64,000 nucleotides of DNA from Candidatus Spongiihabitans sp. (GTDB taxonomy: Bacteria; Pseudomonadota; Gammaproteobacteria; Arenicellales; Poriferihabitantaceae): assembly GCF_965237845.1 (NCBI RefSeq), contig NZ_OZ250154.1:195121-259120 (forward strand). The letters run 5' to 3'. The notes beneath the pieces are model-generated. The model saw nothing but the letters and a program-made list of their open reading frames with translations. It was not told the origin of the DNA and made no database searches. Shown piece after piece: positions 13,596 through 28,637 of this stretch. Position 1 is the stretch's first letter. The number at the start of each line of letters is the position of its first letter. A program made the translations under genes and the position numbers.

Positions 13596-15285
13596 CGCAC
13601 CATTTTTAGTTTTCTTCATCGGCGCAGCTATCGTTCTGGCACTGCCGGGACGCTCAGAGCGATCCGGGCGATTACGAAAAATTGTGATGCTGGCAGTGCC
13701 GCTGGCAGGGTTAATCAATCTGCTGACCTTAGACCAGACCACGGTGTGGCAATTACAGTGGCTTGACCTTGACCTGGTGCTTTTCACCAGCGACCGATTA
13801 AGTTTTATTTTTGGCATACTGTTTCATATCGCCGCGATCATCGCCACAATCTATGCCTGGCATGTCAAAGACCGCCCCCAGCAAGCGGTCGCGCTATTGT
13901 ATCCCGGCAGTGCCCTTGGCATCGTTTTCGCCGGTGATTTTTTGACCCTGTTCGTATTTTGGGAATGCCTGGCGTTAACCTCGGTATTTTTTATCACCGC
14001 TAGGGCAACCCCGCGGGCAATTAAATCCGCGATCCGATATCTGGTGTTTCAGGTCGTGTCGGGCGTGCTCTTGTTGACCGGCAGCTTGTTGATGCTTCAC
14101 CAAACCGGCGGCATTGCGATTGGGCCGTTGGACATGACCGACCCCGGGGCGATATTTTTTCTGCTTGCTTTCGGCATAAAGGCGGCCTTCCCGATGTTGC
14201 ACAACTGGTTGACCGATGCCTATCCAGAAGCCACAGTCAGCGGCACAGTGTTTCTCGGCGCGTTCACCACCAAGGTCGCGGTCTACGTTTTAGCGCGAAC
14301 GTTCACGGGATTGGACGCATTGATTTACATCGGCATGGCGATGGCATGCTTCCCGATTTTCTACGCGGTCATCGAGAATGATTTAAGACGGGTGCTGAGT
14401 TACAGCATGATTAACCAGATTGGATTCATGGTTTGCGGCATCGGCATTGGCACCGAGCTGGCTGTGAACGGGGCCGTGGCGCATGCCTTCAACGATGTCA
14501 TTTTCAAGGGCTTGTTAATGATGTCTATGGGCGCAGTATTATTCCGAACCGGCGACATGCGCGCATCCAATCTTGGCGGGTTGTTCCGAACCATGCCAAA
14601 AACCACCGCGCTTTGTCTGGTCGGCGCAGCCTCGATTTCAGCGTTCCCGTTGTTTAGCGGATTCGTCAGCAAATCCATGGTGATGGCGGCGTTGCTGCTG
14701 CAACACCATGAATTCGTTTGGCTAGCCATGCTGTTTGCGTCTGCCGGGGTATTCCACCACGCCGGCATTAAAATTCCCTATTTCGCCTTCTTCGCCCACG
14801 ACTCCGGATTGCGTCCTGAAGAAGCCCCTCGGCACATGTTAATCGCCATGAGCATTGCCGCAGCGTTGTGTATTTTTGTCGGCAGTTTTCCGCAGTTGCT
14901 TTACCGCCACCTTCCATTTGCTGTGGACTATGCGCCTTTCGAGCTTCCGCATGTGGTTGAGCAGGTTCAACTGCTATTCTTTTCTGCCCTGGCCTTCATC
15001 TGGTTGCAGTTAAAAAACATCTACCCCGCGGAACTCAAATCCACCAACATCGACAGCGAATGGCTTTATCGAAAATTTTGGCCGGCGATTTATACTACAG
15101 CCTGTGCGATAGCGCAAAAACTGCACCTTGGAATTAACGGTTTCGCGTCAGCGACTGCGACGATGCTAACGCCGATGGCAAGAAAACAATCTTATGATTT
15201 GCTGATGCCCTGGTCGGTGCGCGCTATGCTCATGGTTGTCATGGCTTTCCTGGGTGTTGTGCTGGGGTTGTTTTACCTCGTCTAG
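13588..15285 (+). CDS. MrpD/MrpA/NuoL-family antiporter-like subunit (copy 3)
   Basis: The start was set at the ATG at 13588 (MINAPFLVFFIG...). The upstream 49 codons of the computed ORF overlap the 82-aa gene. Core motifs FWECLALTSVFFI and HNWLTDAYPEATVSGTVFL. Confidence 0.8.
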   Translation: MINAPFLVFFIGAAIVLALPGRSERSGRLRKIVMLAVPLAGLINLLTLDQTTVWQLQWLDLDLVLFTSDRLSFIFGILFHIAAIIATIYAWHVKDRPQQAVALLYPGSALGIVFAGDFLTLFVFWECLALTSVFFITARATPRAIKSAIRYLVFQVVSGVLLLTGSLLMLHQTGGIAIGPLDMTDPGAIFFLLAFGIKAAFPMLHNWLTDAYPEATVSGTVFLGAFTTKVAVYVLARTFTGLDALIYIGMAMACFPIFYAVIENDLRRVLSYSMINQIGFMVCGIGIGTELAVNGAVAHAFNDVIFKGLLMMSMGAVLFRTGDMRASNLGGLFRTMPKTTALCLVGAASISAFPLFSGFVSKSMVMAALLLQHHEFVWLAMLFASAGVFHHAGIKIPYFAFFAHDSGLRPEEAPRHMLIAMSIAAALCIFVGSFPQLLYRHLPFAVDYAPFELPHVVEQVQLLFFSALAFIWLQLKNIYPAELKSTNIDSEWLYRKFWPAIYTTACAIAQKLHLGINGFASATATMLTPMARKQSYDLLMPWSVRAMLMVVMAFLGVVLGLFYLV

Positions 15286-15316
15286 TTATTCTTAGAACGT
15301 GGCATCGAGTATAGAT
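15284..15316 (-). repeat. Copy of a dispersed intergenic repeat (CTATACTCGATGCCACGTTCTAAGAATAACTA on the minus strand)
   Basis: The same core GATGCCACGTTCT...AAGAAT is seen at 24110-24144, 28109-28180 and 28251-28322. Confidence 0.7.
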
Positions 15317-15427
15317 TTAATAAACTAATGTATTTTAATTCAGGCTCGTGGCCGTTCCTTGAAAATATTAGGGTTGCAACGTTGAGCTACTTGTCAGGGC
15401 ATTTGTAAATTATTGCAGCATCAATAG

Positions 15428-15492
15428 GGTTGACAATATAACCAATAAGGTTGACAATATTATTCTTTAAGGTTGACAATCAAGGTATTGAC
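15428..15492 (+). promoter_or_regulatory. Array of phased direct repeats (3 x GGTTGACAAT plus a degenerate 4th, AAGGTATTGAC) directly upstream of the wHTH gene
   Basis: Repeats at 15428-15437, 15449-15458 and 15471-15480, spaced 21-22 bp. A degenerate copy lies at 15482-15492, and the ATG is at 15495. Each box contains a TTGACA -35-like hexamer. Confidence 0.6.
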
Positions 15493-15494
15493 TT

Positions 15495-16526
15495 ATGGTA
15501 GGTATTCGTAAAAGAGGTGAAGATATCCGCCAATTTATATTAAATAATGTTGAGCATAACCCGAAAGATATAGTTGCTCTTACATCTCGTGCATACGATA
15601 TATCCAGACAGGCAGTAAACAAGCACATTAAACGTCTTGTTGAAAAAAACGCACTTTTAGAGCGTGGCGCAACCAGGAATAAGCGTTATATTTTGCATCC
15701 ATTAGTTAAATGGGAACACATCTATACTTTAAATGGCACTTTGGCAGAGGATGCGGTTTGGCGCGGAGATATTTCTGAGTTTATAAATGACTTGCCAGAT
15801 AACGTCATTGATATTTGGCACTATGGTTTTACTGAAATACTTAACAATGCAATTGACCACTCATCTGGCACGCAAGTACATATACAGATTACAAAAACTG
15901 CTACTACAACTGAAATCGTAATATATGACGATGGCGAAGGTATCTTTAAGAAAATTCAGCGCGAATTAGAATTGAGTGATGAGCGCCATTCAGTTTTAGA
16001 GCTGGCTAAAGGTAAATTAACAACTGACCCAGACAATCACACTGGTGAAGGGATTTTCTTTAGCTCACGTATGTTTGATGATTTTGCAATATTGTCTGGC
16101 AGTGTATGTTTTTCACACAAACATGATCAAGTTGAAGATTGGATTTTAGAGCGTCAAAAATTTCAATCTGGTACGGGTGTATTTATGGTGTTATTCAATA
16201 ACACAGCAAGAACACCAAAATCTGTCTTTGATAAGTTTACATCTGGAGATGATTACGGCTTTACCAAAACTGTCGTCCCAGTCCGATTAACACAGTACGG
16301 CCATGATAATCTGGTTTCTCGCTCTCAAGCTAAAAGACTGTTAGCGGGGGTTGAGAAATTTGAAACTGTTATTTTTGATTTTGATAATGTTGAAACGATT
16401 GGGCAAGCGTTTGCTGATGAAATATTTCGTGTTTTCAAATTGCAGCAACCAGATATGGAATTAATTTACTTGAATTCCAACGAGCAAGTAACACAAATGA
16501 TTACACGAGCCTTGTCGCGAGAGTAG
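15495..16526 (+). CDS. wHTH - GHKL/HATPase_c-like ATPase - STAS-like (DUF4325-type) protein
   Basis: 343 aa. N-terminal ArsR/MarR-like wHTH (ISRQAVNKHIKRLVEKNALL). GHKL N-box ILNNAIDHS, G1 box YDDGEGIF and G2 box HTGEGIFF. C-terminal VIFDFDNVETIGQAFADEIF resembles a STAS-like/DUF4325 domain. Confidence 0.65.
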   Translation: MVGIRKRGEDIRQFILNNVEHNPKDIVALTSRAYDISRQAVNKHIKRLVEKNALLERGATRNKRYILHPLVKWEHIYTLNGTLAEDAVWRGDISEFINDLPDNVIDIWHYGFTEILNNAIDHSSGTQVHIQITKTATTTEIVIYDDGEGIFKKIQRELELSDERHSVLELAKGKLTTDPDNHTGEGIFFSSRMFDDFAILSGSVCFSHKHDQVEDWILERQKFQSGTGVFMVLFNNTARTPKSVFDKFTSGDDYGFTKTVVPVRLTQYGHDNLVSRSQAKRLLAGVEKFETVIFDFDNVETIGQAFADEIFRVFKLQQPDMELIYLNSNEQVTQMITRALSRE

Positions 16527-16630
16527 CCCTAACGCTTCGCATCACAGATAGCAAAAAGTGGGGCGGCTGGAGCGTAGCGGAAGCCGCGGTGCTTTATGAT
16601 GCCCACTCCATTTGTAACTTGCGATAAAGA

Positions 16631-16650
16631 TGGGCCTTAACTGTAAGACC
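16631..16650. repeat. Palindromic motif copy (GGGCCTTAACTGTAAGACCC)
   Basis: An imperfect copy of the 22-bp palindrome GGGTCTTAACTAGTCAAGACCC found at 35836-35857 and, in part, at 18080-18101. The flanking GATGGG and CCCTTAT/CCCTAGAT are also similar. Confidence 0.75.
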
Positions 16651-16657
16651 CTTATCG

Positions 16658-16735
16658 ACAGTTTTCCGCAGTTACTTTACCGCCTCCTTTCATTTGCTGT
16701 GGGCTATGCGCCTTTCGAGCTTCCCTATGCTTGTA
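16658..16735 (+). pseudogene. Partial diverged copy (left arm plus core) of an internal segment of the last mrp gene
   Basis: CAGTTTTCCGCAGTTACTTTACCGCCTCCTTTCATTTGCTGTGGGCTATGCGCCTTTCGAGCTTCC aligns to 14883-14948 with a few mismatches. It encodes SFPQLLYRLLSFAVGYAPFELP versus SFPQLLYRHLPFAVDYAPFELP. Confidence 0.8.
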
Positions 16736-17331
16736 GCATCAAACGGTGTTTTATAAAGCTCATTTACTTGCCACAAACCACTTTTTACGATTTTTTCTTT
16801 TGGCGAACTATTGCCAAGCCAATCATTTGACGGTTTACATTCATCACACCTTGAGATTGTAGCGATTAGTTTTGATTCAATATCCAGCCGCTCTTCCTTG
16901 TTTTTTACTTCAAAGGTAGCGAACGAGAAATTGCCCTGGATGTACTGGCTAACCTGGTTTTCAATATTCTTTTGGTAATCAAAATCGATCAGCGAAGAGT
17001 ATTTATCTTTTGCCTTTTTTGTGACGAGATTACGCTCCCAGTATTTTAAAAAAGGATCATTGTGCTGGCTAAGTAAAGCCCTGCCAATATTCTTTCTGAA
17101 AATACTTCGATCTTTATTCTCGTTAAGGAAATGTTCCTCCAATCTTAAACGAAGTCGACTCTCTCCCGTGTGCGTACCTATTCTCACAATTCTTTCCTTC
17201 TGGTGCCCATACTCGCCTTTTTGAAACAAAACATAGATGCCATTCAATGGAATATTTGATGCCTCAAAGGGAAATTTATGCCTCTCAAGTTCATTGGCAA
17301 GTCTATGAACTGAAGAACATTCACTACTCAT
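16690..17331 (-). CDS. GIY-YIG-like nuclease-family protein (tentative)
   Basis: 213 aa. NGIYVLFQKGE...IVRIGTHTGESRLRLRLEEHF...IFRKNIGRAL resembles a GIY-YIG core. The C-terminal part contains CDECKPSNDWLGNSS...SGLWQVNEL. Its ATG overlaps the stop of the upstream gene (ATGA at 17328-17331). Confidence 0.5.
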   Translation of the reverse strand: MSSECSSVHRLANELERHKFPFEASNIPLNGIYVLFQKGEYGHQKERIVRIGTHTGESRLRLRLEEHFLNENKDRSIFRKNIGRALLSQHNDPFLKYWERNLVTKKAKDKYSSLIDFDYQKNIENQVSQYIQGNFSFATFEVKNKEERLDIESKLIATISRCDECKPSNDWLGNSSPKEKIVKSGLWQVNELYKTPFDATSIGKLERRIAHSK

Positions 17332-17807
17332 GTAACCAACCCCTTGAGCCTTTGTAGCTGCTCTCCAATACGCAGACCCTCAAGTGGTATTTGTGCATTC
17401 TTGATATGCGGCAACAAATACTTCCTATATTTATCTCCGGCTAGAAACGTAAACTCCGTTTCATTAATAGAGCAAACTTGCTTTATTTGATCAAGTACTC
17501 TACTTGCCCATTGTTTGATTTCATTTGAACGCATATTGTTCAGAGTTTGCTCATACGGCTCAATTTCCTGACCTAAAGGCAACAACCCATACTTTGCGGA
17601 AAGAATAAAGATTTTATCGGGTTCCAGTTTTTTTGCGTATTTCAGATTGAGTTTAAAGAGTGTACTGATGTACAGGTCCTTTGCCTTCGCACTGCGCGAA
17701 AGTTTTTTACTTACACATGAAATTAGAACTATCCGTTTTGGCATAACTTTTCTTTTGTGTGTCCGCTGAATGCTTTTGTTAGATTTATTTTCGAGTAATG
17801 CCCTCAA
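17328..17807 (-). CDS. DUF6884-like protein (tentative); the real start is probably the ATG at 17744
   Basis: The 159-aa ORF contains RIVLISCVSKK...AKDLYISTLF...IFILSAKYGLL...IEPYEQTL...FLAGDKYRKYL...PLEGLRIGEQLQRL, the pattern I associate with DUF6884. The N-terminal 21 codons overlap a gene fragment. Confidence 0.5.
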   Translation of the reverse strand: MRALLENKSNKSIQRTHKRKVMPKRIVLISCVSKKLSRSAKAKDLYISTLFKLNLKYAKKLEPDKIFILSAKYGLLPLGQEIEPYEQTLNNMRSNEIKQWASRVLDQIKQVCSINETEFTFLAGDKYRKYLLPHIKNAQIPLEGLRIGEQLQRLKGLVT

Positions 17808-17988
17808 TAGAACTCACAGGTCCCATCGCAGATATTTGTACTCTGAGTTCGTTCTTTAGGATGAAGCCACCGTTTTCTTCACTTGTTTTCAACAACTCCC
17901 AACGCACAAAATCAGTTCTAAGTTTCTCTTTTGCAGTTTGGATTGCCTGAGCCAGTGCCTCATCAAAACTTCCATTTTGAGAAACACC
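17785..17988 (-). pseudogene. Start-less dodecin-like fragment
   Basis: An open frame GVSQNGSFDEALAQAIQTAKEKLRTDFVRWELLKTSEENGGFILKNELRVQISA resembles the dodecin fold consensus (GsS..SfedA...A..tlrn..w.ev.e.rG....G). It has no start codon and a stop immediately upstream. Confidence 0.3.
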
Positions 17989-18055
17989 TTAAAACCTCTC
18001 TAAATTTCTTCTCCGTAATTCGGGAACGATTGTAATACTTGTTTTTCCTTTTCAT
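17963..18055 (-). pseudogene. 30-codon ORF resembling the N-terminus of a small transposase-like protein (IS1595-type?)
   Basis: MKRKNKYYNRSRITEKKFREVLRCF... resembles N-termini I recall from IS-associated proteins. It runs out of frame into the dodecin-like fragment. Very tentative. Confidence 0.2.
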
Positions 18056-18079
18056 AACTAGTACTTTAAGCAATTTTTA

Positions 18080-18101
18080 GTTGCTTAACTAGTCAAGACC
18101 C
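18080..18101. repeat. Palindromic motif copy (GTTGCTTAACTAGTCAAGACCC) exactly at the truncation point of intI
   Basis: 18 of 22 nt (CTTAACTAGTCAAGACCC) are identical to 35840-35857. IntI homology starts at 18102. Confidence 0.8.
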
Positions 18102-18839
18102 TTGGTATTTATGTATAAGCAGGTGTTGGATATGAAGCCACCCTGGGTAACCGATGTGGTTCGTGCCAAGCCTAAGAAAAATATCCCTGTGGTATTAACG
18201 CGTGCTGAGGTGGTACGGGTGTTGTCGCATCTAAAAGGGCGTTATTATTTAATGGGACAACTGCTTTATGGCGCGGGGCTGCGGTTAATGGAGGTGGTGC
18301 GGTTGCGCGTTAAGGATATTGATTTTGGTTATAAATCGATTATTGTGCGTGATGGCAAGGGCAATAAAGATCGAGTAGTGATGTTGCCTGGTAAATTGAT
18401 TAAACCTTTACAAAGCGTTTTAAAAGAGCGCAAGCAGGTGTTTGATCAAGATTTAGCGAATGGTGTAGGCAGTGTTTATCTGCCTAATGCCCTGGCTAAA
18501 AAATATCCCAATGCTCAGAATGAGTGGATTTGGCAATTTGTATTTGCCTCACCGAATCTGTCAGCAGACCCGCGTACCGGTGTTGTGCGCCGTCATCATA
18601 TTTATGATCAATCTATTCAAAGAATGATTAAGCAGGCAACGCGTGATGGGCGCATTAGCAAAAAAGTCAGCCCGCATACTTTACGGCATTCTTTTGCTAC
18701 GCATTTATTAGAAACCGGTTATGATATTCGCACTATTCAAGAATTACTTGGGCATAAACATGTTGAGACTACGATGATTTACACGCATGTATTAAAACAA
18801 GGTGGGCAAGGGGTGCAAAGTCCATTAGATGTCTTATGA
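18102..18839 (+). pseudogene. intI: Integron integrase IntI, 5'-truncated (about 85-90 N-terminal residues missing)
   Basis: 245 aa collinear with the C-terminal three quarters of IntI1. It includes the integron-specific insertion [42 protein letters not shown] and the catalytic R...K...HTLRHSFAT...LLGH...MIYTHV. The frame is closed by TAG at 18090. Confidence 0.85.
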
Positions 18840-18950
18840 GTTATATGGGATGGATTTAGTTATGCTTCCCGGCTTGAGGCGGAAATACGGGACACCTACA
18901 AAATATTGACTCATGTCAGGCGACCGATAAGCCGGATGTTTCGTGGATGT

Positions 18951-19009
18951 CCTGTGGACTATGCGCCTTTCGATCTTTCCCATGTGGTCAAGCAGGTTCA
19001 ACTGCTGTT
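18951..19009 (+). pseudogene. Partial diverged copy (core plus right arm) of the same internal mrp segment
   Basis: CTGTGGACTATGCGCCTTTCGATCTTTCCCATGTGGTCAAGCAGGTTCAACTGCTGTTC aligns to 14921-14979. Confidence 0.8.
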
Positions 19010-19040
19010 CCCATTAGAGCAATGACTGAGATTTTCGACA

Positions 19041-28322: not shown

Positions 28323-28637
28323 GCAATTTTGAGTGGTCACCGGATCTTCCAACAATATTCTGTGTTACCCATTAAATCAGGTTTATGATTCAGTATCAAA
28401 CTGCTTGCAGTTTATGCGGGTAAAGCGATAGATTGTCAACACGATGGATGTACGAGCTAGTACTCGCCCGCTCATGATGGAGCAGGATTCGAACGATGGT
28501 GGTATTATCAACCAATCACTCAAACTGCCTGATTTTGTCTCATAATGTGGTGAACTCGGACAGATAGTTGACCTTATGACCAACAACGAGTAGTCTGTGC
28601 GCCCGATTTCTCATTACAAACCAACAAAGAGTCTGCC

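Follow-up and report, generated by a model that had tools for sequence, protein, structure and literature searches.

Known GHKL/STAS systems and a single-chain relative

To our knowledge, partner switches that pair a GHKL kinase with a STAS domain were long known only as controls of sigma factors. Evidence that such GHKL/STAS switches control immune operons, as well as a toxin-antitoxin system, came in 2026 (Chambers et al., EMBO J 2026, PMC13373217). CapK, a kinase with the domain order helix-turn-helix (HTH)-STAS-GHKL, phosphorylates the repressor CapS, in which a STAS domain is followed by a winged HTH (wHTH) domain, on Ser54, and the two proteins control adjacent immune operons (PMC13373217). 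VapKSC is a tested anti-phage system whose antitoxin, VapS, has a conserved Ser48 that is equivalent to CapS Ser54, is needed for phage protection, and is placed for phosphorylation by VapK in the predicted complex (PMC13373217; PDB 9Z7O). Here we describe a gene that unites the parts of such a switch in one polypeptide. It occupies positions 15495-16526 (plus strand) of a 64,000-nt stretch of the Candidatus Spongiihabitans sp. genome (assembly GCF_965237845.1, contig NZ_OZ250154.1, positions 195,121 to 259,120), which is called the window below. The open reading frame (ORF) has an ATG start and encodes a 343-aa protein with a wHTH, a GHKL ATP-binding, and a STAS-like (DUF4325) domain, and it is preceded by an array of direct repeats, referred to as boxes (Table 1). 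We read this locus as an autonomous, horizontally mobile one-gene regulatory module that is self-repressed via the boxes and contains a GHKL/STAS switch, and we assign a probability of about 0.6 to this model as a whole. The family would then represent a third layout of such systems, with all parts on a single chain, an acceptor site that is dead, and an operator that comes with the gene and doubles as its promoter.

We rate the protein as a single-chain variant of the GHKL/STAS systems, the closest known ones being CapK/CapS, VapKSC, and SpoIIAB/SpoIIAA. As in VapK/VapS, a DUF4325 domain is paired with a GHKL domain of the anti-sigma type. Here, however, a single chain holds both, preceded by a wHTH domain, whereas VapK has the order STAS-GHKL and no DNA-binding head; a VapC/PIN toxin is also absent. 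Coupling of VapC-like genes to DUF4325 genes has been noted in a classification of PIN domains (PMC5499597). CapK and CapS together have the same inventory of HTH, GHKL, and STAS parts, and both they and the present family are mobile and accessory. CapS, too, uses a wHTH joined to a STAS domain to repress its own promoter via repeated sites, repression at the present locus being a prediction. The differences concern the domain arrangement (wHTH-GHKL-STAS in one protein vs. HTH-STAS-GHKL plus a separate STAS-wHTH), the absence here of a controlled downstream operon and of the conserved serine, and the operators, which are palindromes in CapK/CapS and direct repeats every 21-22 bp here. Membership in the CapK/CapS group is not claimed, as the domain order differs, the hhalign matches are at the level of motifs only, and no capS follows, the downstream gene being convergent.

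The SpoIIAB-SpoIIAA and RsbW-RsbV modules provide the best structural matches to the GHKL domain, have the motifs ExxxNAxxH, DxGxG, and GxG in common with it, and involve a partner of the STAS fold. Unlike in these modules, the parts are fused here and joined to a DNA-binding domain, the STAS acceptor serine is missing, and no sigma-factor or PP2C phosphatase gene is seen among the most frequent neighbour families. An operator that overlaps the promoter is shared with autoregulated wHTH repressors of the ArsR/MarR type, from which the locus differs in that three direct repeats two turns apart coincide with the promoter hexamers and in the added ATPase and STAS domains. Finally, phage morons and self-promoted integron cassettes are similar in being self-contained transcription units that travel as one piece.

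Upstream box array and recognition helix

Three exact copies of GGTTGACAAT, which a first-pass annotation based on the letters of the window alone had placed directly upstream of the gene at 21-22 bp, were indeed found there, beginning at 15428, 15449, and 15471 and thus spaced by 21 and 22 bp. No further exact copies occur in the 64-kb window. Since about 0.1 copies of a given 10-mer are expected in 128 kb (both strands), three copies within 53 bp are far beyond chance. A fourth element, AAGGTATTGAC at 15482-15492, is weaker and degenerate and ends 2 nt before the ATG, which corrects the distance of 3 bp given initially. Two boxes with one mismatch each, TGTTGACAAT and GGTTGATAAT (28432-28441 and 28504-28513, minus strand), lie 72 bp apart elsewhere in the window; they were dismissed as a second array because they are unphased and are probably chance occurrences or ordinary -35 elements.

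The array is a property of the family. Upstream regions of 130 nt were compared for homologs at 74 loci on contigs representing one genome per species, and three copies of (T)AAGGTTGACAAT are nearly always present, although the spacers between them are unrelated. The hosts of these arrays include sulfur-oxidising and methanotrophic Gammaproteobacteria, Cyanobacteria, Desulfobacterota, a Planctomycete, Paceibacterota, and Nitrospirae, and arrays were also found on viral contigs. At least two boxes were counted in 60 of 62 loci and at least three in 50 of them, with adjacent boxes spaced by 21 bp in 48 pairs and by 22 bp in another 48. When viral and distant loci were included, an 8-mer was repeated at 20-23 bp at least twice in 81/84 loci and at least three times in 60/84, compared with 13 and 1%, respectively, for shuffled sequences and 21 and 1% for control windows 600 bp upstream.

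The boxes vary together with the recognition helix of the wHTH domain. Phased TT[GT]AC[AG] boxes precede 71 of the 78 genes with an [ST]RQ[AGS] helix and 1 of the 6 genes with other helices (Fisher p = 1.4e-4, a statistic that ignores phylogeny). Because the array is conserved despite differing spacers, and because a change of helix comes with a change of boxes but not of phasing, the boxes can be regarded as predicted operators of this protein, which very probably binds them. The covariation is the strongest computational evidence here that the wHTH domain reads the boxes, and together with the phylogenetic footprint it supports the earlier suggestion that the repeats are sites of cooperative autoregulation. 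The repeat sequences of loci L067, L077, L101, and L107 diverge while the 11- or 21-22-bp phasing is kept, and these loci form a natural series of wHTH specificities (Table 1).

A scan with the sigma-70 consensus revealed that each box doubles as the -35 element for the -10 element of the next box, which results in two tandem predicted promoters, P1 (TTGACA-17-GACAAT, 15430-15458) and P2 (TTGACA-18-GACAAT, 15451-15480), each agreeing with the consensus at 10 of 12 positions. The T at box position 7, the would-be -7 base, is conserved in 98% of loci for box 2, 75% for box 1, and 45% for box 3 (55 three-box loci). P1, formed by boxes 1 and 2, is favoured as the main promoter, since this conservation is highest in box 2; its transcript would start near 15465 and have a leader of about 30 nt containing box 3 and the AAGG element. 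A leaderless start is not favoured because the box statistics point to the start near 15465, although it is conceivable for P2, whose transcript would begin near 15487. Conservation of the boxes also reaches the TAAGG flank, which lies outside the promoter hexamers. We infer negative autoregulation through the boxes, because bound protein would occlude RNA polymerase.

Domain architecture and ATP-binding site

The presence of wHTH, GHKL ATPase, and STAS-like (DUF4325) domains in one polypeptide, read at first from the translated letters, is borne out by Pfam, alignment, and AlphaFold2/Foldseek results. Pfam recognised DUF4325 at residues 278-332 (51.6 bits vs. a gathering threshold of 23, E = 7.5e-14) and HATPase_c_2 at residues 98-199 (34.1 bits vs. 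a cutoff of 27.4), the signal of the N-terminal wHTH being weak. The NCBIfam scan yielded histidine-kinase matches at the level of the N box only, and a sequence search of the PDB returned marginal histidine-kinase and MarR matches and nothing better.

An alignment of 47 members of the family (52-92% identity) demonstrated invariant positions in all three domains. These include R38, Q39, and H44 in the recognition helix; E114 and N118 of the N box, D145xG147xG149 of the G1 box, G184xG186 of the G2 box, T227 of the G3 box, and the ATP-lid segment KGKLTTDP in the GHKL domain; and SRSQAKR (275-281), DF (295-296), and GQ.F.D (303-308) in the last domain. The N, G1, and G2 boxes noted in the first-pass annotation therefore persist after proper alignment. 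The AlphaFold2 model of the full protein has a predicted local distance difference test (pLDDT) score of 84.5 and a predicted template modelling (pTM) score of 0.77. For the middle domain, the best Foldseek matches in the PDB were SpoIIAB structures (1til, 1l0o, and 1tid; E = 2e-5), followed by RsbW and UsfX, with target-normalised template modelling scores (TM-scores) of 0.62-0.81 among the top matches and 0.76-0.78 for the SpoIIAB chains. The C-terminal domain, which was modelled separately, best matched STAS domains of RsbS, the stressosome, and SLC26/prestin. Given the invariant motifs and the structural matches, we consider the three-domain reading correct, and the ATP site looks functional as judged from the alignment and the model.

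The STAS-like domain lacks the phosphorylation acceptor

The STAS-like domain was compared with the sequences of CapK, CapS, and VapS obtained from the source data of PMC13373217. VapS scores 63.7 bits on the DUF4325 model of Pfam, and CapS is not recognised as a member by that model. The segment VILDFSNVKMF of VapS was aligned by hhalign with VIFDFDNVETI of the 343-aa protein; gapless extension of this register places VapS Ser48 on the invariant Q304, and when CapS is aligned on the following Phe, its Ser54 falls on A305. This alanine follows Q304 in at least 90% of sequences, with G, S, or A at position 305 in more distant members. Hence, the Ser/Thr acceptor that is conserved where STAS helix 2 begins (S48 in VapS, S54 in CapS) is absent, and the loop contains no conserved hydroxyl residue. 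Because the acceptor serine is replaced by Q304-A305, this STAS domain of the VapS type is predicted to be unphosphorylatable at the canonical site and looks like an unphosphorylatable pseudo-substrate. As for the self-contained partner-switching device envisaged earlier, its kinase-like and STAS parts are present, but with the replaced serine the classical switch is not intact.

Family size and genomic context

The 343-aa protein has more than 8,000 matches of near-equal length, the most similar being 92% identical. When 1.84 billion cluster representatives were scanned in full with HMMER, 851 clusters (50% identity) were obtained at E <= 1e-30, nearly all of them with 340-360 aa, and the three-domain architecture and the length of about 343 aa are constant across these clusters. 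At 90% identity, the family comprises thousands of clusters, and it crosses phyla at 60-90% identity. No publication on the family was found in open-access PubMed Central or bioRxiv, where DUF4325 itself is mentioned in three papers only.

No conserved partner gene accompanies the family, as an all-against-all BLAST comparison of 478 ORFs within 4 kb of the homologs gave no broad cluster; on these grounds, we discarded the possibility that this locus is a two-gene system. The 113 nearest flanking ORFs at 64 loci contain domains of 145 Pfam families, none of which occurs in more than three loci, and no sigma factor, separate STAS antagonist, or PP2C phosphatase is present among the 25 most frequent of these families. 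The homologs are thus not embedded in operons for sigma-factor partner switching. Many neighbours are housekeeping genes (e.g., aconitase, transketolase, and methionine synthase), and the downstream gene is convergent in 35/55 loci, this window included. An association with defence or restriction-modification (R-M) genes or with integron cassettes, which the first-pass annotation had proposed to look for, holds for few loci: a handful of relatives adjoin genes of the JetD, AbiEi, DRT, BrxH, PsyrT, and PDC families, one locus is part of an R-M island, and few are in integron cassettes.

No tblastn match was obtained in 72,556 plasmid (PLSDB) or 50,697 cultured-phage (INPHARED) records. Relatives do occur on 25 IMG/VR contigs beside endolysin/lysis, tail-fibre, tape-measure, repressor, and HNH genes, often close to the end of the contig and in moron-like positions. 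In a Francisella prophage, a 112-aa DUF4325 gene follows an uncharacterised 293-aa gene beside cI and an integrase gene (PMC7924643), and this pair may be a split version of the family. On a Candidatus Spongiihabitans chromosome (L075, 5330-7160), the unit stands alone between a Rieske-protein gene and sucCD, with no recombinase, attC site, or other foreign gene.

Proposed mechanism and alternative readings

In the proposed module, the TAAGGTTGACAAT boxes, two helical turns apart, would act as a sigma-70 promoter and as wHTH operators at once. By binding cooperatively to one DNA face, the protein would keep RNA polymerase out and thereby repress its own gene, and the STAS domain, as a pseudo-substrate that cannot be phosphorylated, would dock on the GHKL domain. 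Either the nucleotide state or an external trigger displacing the STAS domain would toggle the protein between two forms, one bound to DNA and repressing and the other released, and after release the freed kinase-like domain might act on a further target. The operator/protein pair is predicted precisely enough for direct bench testing, which makes the question of the output approachable.

Several points weigh against this model. A gene that regulates only itself has no obvious selective value, and the model lacks an output, which is an essential part. The hhalign match to VapS is a short stretch of 14 columns, and hhalign finds no significant whole-domain match to CapK (probability 11%, N/G1 box region only) or CapS (nothing). 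In addition, the covariation of helices and boxes is based on a small non-canonical sample (6 loci) without phylogenetic correction, and the conservation of the boxes could partly reflect promoter elements instead of binding sites.

The gene could also be a single-gene sensor of phage infection or stress of the abortive-infection type, a reading that extends the proposed self-repressed module and does not contradict it. An infection or DNA-damage cue would free the protein from its operator, in the way that single-stranded DNA (ssDNA) frees CapK and VapK, and the protein would then sequester a sigma factor or phosphorylate host or phage proteins. The candidate defence pair PDC-M57A/B next to the gene, the few relatives beside defence or R-M genes, the moron-like positions on the 25 IMG/VR contigs, the possible split version in the Francisella prophage, and the membership of the DUF4325 protein VapS in a tested anti-phage system provide circumstantial evidence for such a role. 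However, PADLOC-DB v2 gave no significant match, only a marginal one to the SoFic wHTH (E = 0.0054, 14 bits), many copies lie between housekeeping genes, the protein has no effector domain, and cultured-phage and plasmid records contain no relatives. On balance, we regard this role as possible though rather unlikely.

A more specific version, which we consider a long shot, is an immune or stress switch that mimics promoters. The near-universal TTGACA.AT operator at every two turns would let the gene be expressed and self-silenced in almost any bacterium. A trigger (phage DNA, ssDNA, or a change in ATP) would make the pseudo-substrate STAS domain leave the GHKL domain, and the accumulating protein would capture a sigma factor or occupy consensus -35 elements. 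Such a triggered shutdown of sigma-70 transcription would constitute an abortive-infection or dormancy device, made of one protein, which may move via integron-type core sites at its two ends (GTTAGGGC...GCCCTAAC) without a full attC.

Alternatively, the boxes might be merely promoter elements, forming tandem strong sigma-70 promoters for any host, with the wHTH domain binding elsewhere or nowhere. The fit of TTGACA and GACAAT to -35 and -10 elements at 17-18 bp, which would work in many phyla, is consistent with this explanation. We nevertheless find it very unlikely, since the TAAGG flank outside the hexamers is conserved as well, three copies are kept where two would suffice, and genes with altered helices carry CCTTTAAGAAAA, TAATTAAC, and GTTAGGTAA at the same 22-bp phasing, none of which are promoter hexamers.

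It is highly improbable that the protein controls adjacent downstream cargo in the manner of CapK/CapS. Its domain set equals that of CapK plus CapS, the predicted promoter is strong and faces outward, and some copies reside in integron cassettes, but the prevalent convergent orientation of the downstream gene, the lack of a conserved downstream family, and the lack of other box arrays in the 64-kb window argue against such control. Plasmid or phage iterons or a partition site, as also suggested at first, with the protein as an initiator or centromere-binding ATPase, have next to no chance of being correct: direct, helically phased repeats do lie beside a gene for a DNA-binding ATPase, but plasmid and cultured-phage records lack the family, its copies are single, chromosomal, and located between housekeeping genes, the ATPase is of the anti-sigma-kinase type and not Rep or ParA, and the boxes coincide with -35 and -10 hexamers.

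Mobility and integron-like ends

The unit appears to spread as a compact block with integron-like ends. Homology of the window with three related loci (L001, L003, and L019) begins exactly at the GTCAGGGC motif, and in several other clades GTTAGG[CGT] precedes box 1 by 30-50 nt. At the opposite end, YYYAAC is located at the stop codon in 15/63 loci vs. a background of 3.4%, and a related strain diverges from the window after 16533. Complete attC-like sites were detected in few relatives (L015, L016, and L034); in the window, a strict pattern search for R''/R' with folding found no complete attC, the search being too crude to exclude a decayed one. Because of the YYYAAC enrichment at stop codons, the ends of the shared block, and the complete attC-like sites in few relatives, we conclude that the family sometimes moves as an integron cassette. 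No intI was found within 6 kb in the related loci L001-L076, and in the window the gene points toward intI, opposite to the canonical cassette orientation, the intI here being devoid of attI. By its sequence context, the gene is best described as an accessory unit that is sometimes an integron cassette and whose copies are mostly solitary. Among relatives, homology extends as far as the R''-like motif but does not continue to where an attC would end.

Table 1. Positions of features at the locus and of repeats in homologous loci with diverged helices or boxes (window coordinates unless a locus is named).
Feature	Position	Strand	Description
GTCAGGGC	15391-15398	+	Degenerate integron core-site-like motif (GTTAGGGC in relatives); left end of shared block
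Box 1 (GGTTGACAAT)	15428-15437	+	TTGACA at 15430-15435, predicted -35 of P1
Box 2 (GGTTGACAAT)	15449-15458	+	GACAAT at 15453-15458, predicted -10 of P1; TTGACA at 15451-15456, predicted -35 of P2
Box 3 (GGTTGACAAT)	15471-15480	+	Predicted -10 of P2 and/or operator just 3' of the P1 start
AAGGTATTGACTT	15482-15494	+	Shine-Dalgarno-like AAGG and degenerate fourth half-box; conserved in close relatives only
wHTH domain	15495-15728	+	Residues 1-78; recognition helix ISRQAVNKHI; weak matches to MarR/ArsR-type wHTH
GHKL ATP-binding domain, anti-sigma-factor kinase type	15747-16244	+	Residues ~85-250; Pfam HATPase_c_2, invariant boxes, Foldseek
STAS-like domain (DUF4325)	16260-16523	+	Residues ~256-343; Pfam, alignment, domain model
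GCCCTAAC	16527-16534	+	Integron R''-like motif immediately 3' of the stop codon; right end of shared block
Imperfect 109-nt hairpin region	16527-16635	+	Possibly a decayed attC; z-score only -0.84, not significant
PDC-M57B	16690-17331	-	213 aa, E = 2.9e-95; convergent with the gene
PDC-M57A (DUF6884)	17328-17807	-	159 aa, E = 5.7e-60
67-codon open frame	17785-17988	-	No usable start codon; between PDC-M57A and the 5'-truncated intI; possibly a gene remnant
Integron integrase gene (intI)	18102-18839	+	Lacks the first ~71 codons and attI; matches TIGR02249 positions 72-315
L067 repeats	1160-1215 of L067		Helix ITPQAVNNH; CCTTTAAGAAAA x2 at 22 bp
L077 repeats			Helix LTRPGVHRH; TTTATAA at 11/21 bp
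L083 repeats			Helix ISRQSANNH; ATTTACAATAA
L101 repeats			Helix IKTSSAGNH; TAATTAAC x3 at 22 bp
L107 repeats			Helix ITKSAVAKH; GTTAGGTAA x2 at 22 bp

The surrounding island

The gene had been described as sitting alone on the plus strand in an accessory island, and it proved to be the sole plus-strand gene between 15286 and 18100, in a segment (15.3-18.9 kb) of about 40% guanine + cytosine vs. about 50% in the flanks. Its neighbours in the window are genes for mrp subunits, PDC-M57A/B, and intI, with a terminator-like hairpin at 16651-16632. A segment from within the last mrp gene (Na+/H+ antiporter subunit D-like), at 14876-14979, recurs as two direct copies: one at 16652-16729 is 90% identical and represents its left part, and the other, at 18947-19010, is 88% identical and represents its right part. 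Consequently, one pair of direct repeats brackets the mrp tail and the gene, a second pair brackets the PDC-M57/intI segment, and these repeats look like nested scars of single crossovers or other recombination. With the copy located ahead of the Rieske gene, a shorter reading frame would result that ends in ...QLLFPLEQ*.

Multi-copy short repeats are located at the edges of the island (15275-15314 and 17982-18101), where assembler depth jumps 2- to 9-fold in four runs and separate short contigs end. After position ~15314 the sequence differs in other strains (loose ends GCTGTATTTAAGTTGGCTC...), indicating that the cargo behind mrp varies. Based on the edge repeats and these alternative sequences, the site is considered a variable hot spot. 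In other runs, the 18101/18102 boundary is adjoined by several different sequences, and contigs of run X7, from another organism, have the junction ASTQNQALSA/LVFMY across 18102, which corresponds to an intact intI.

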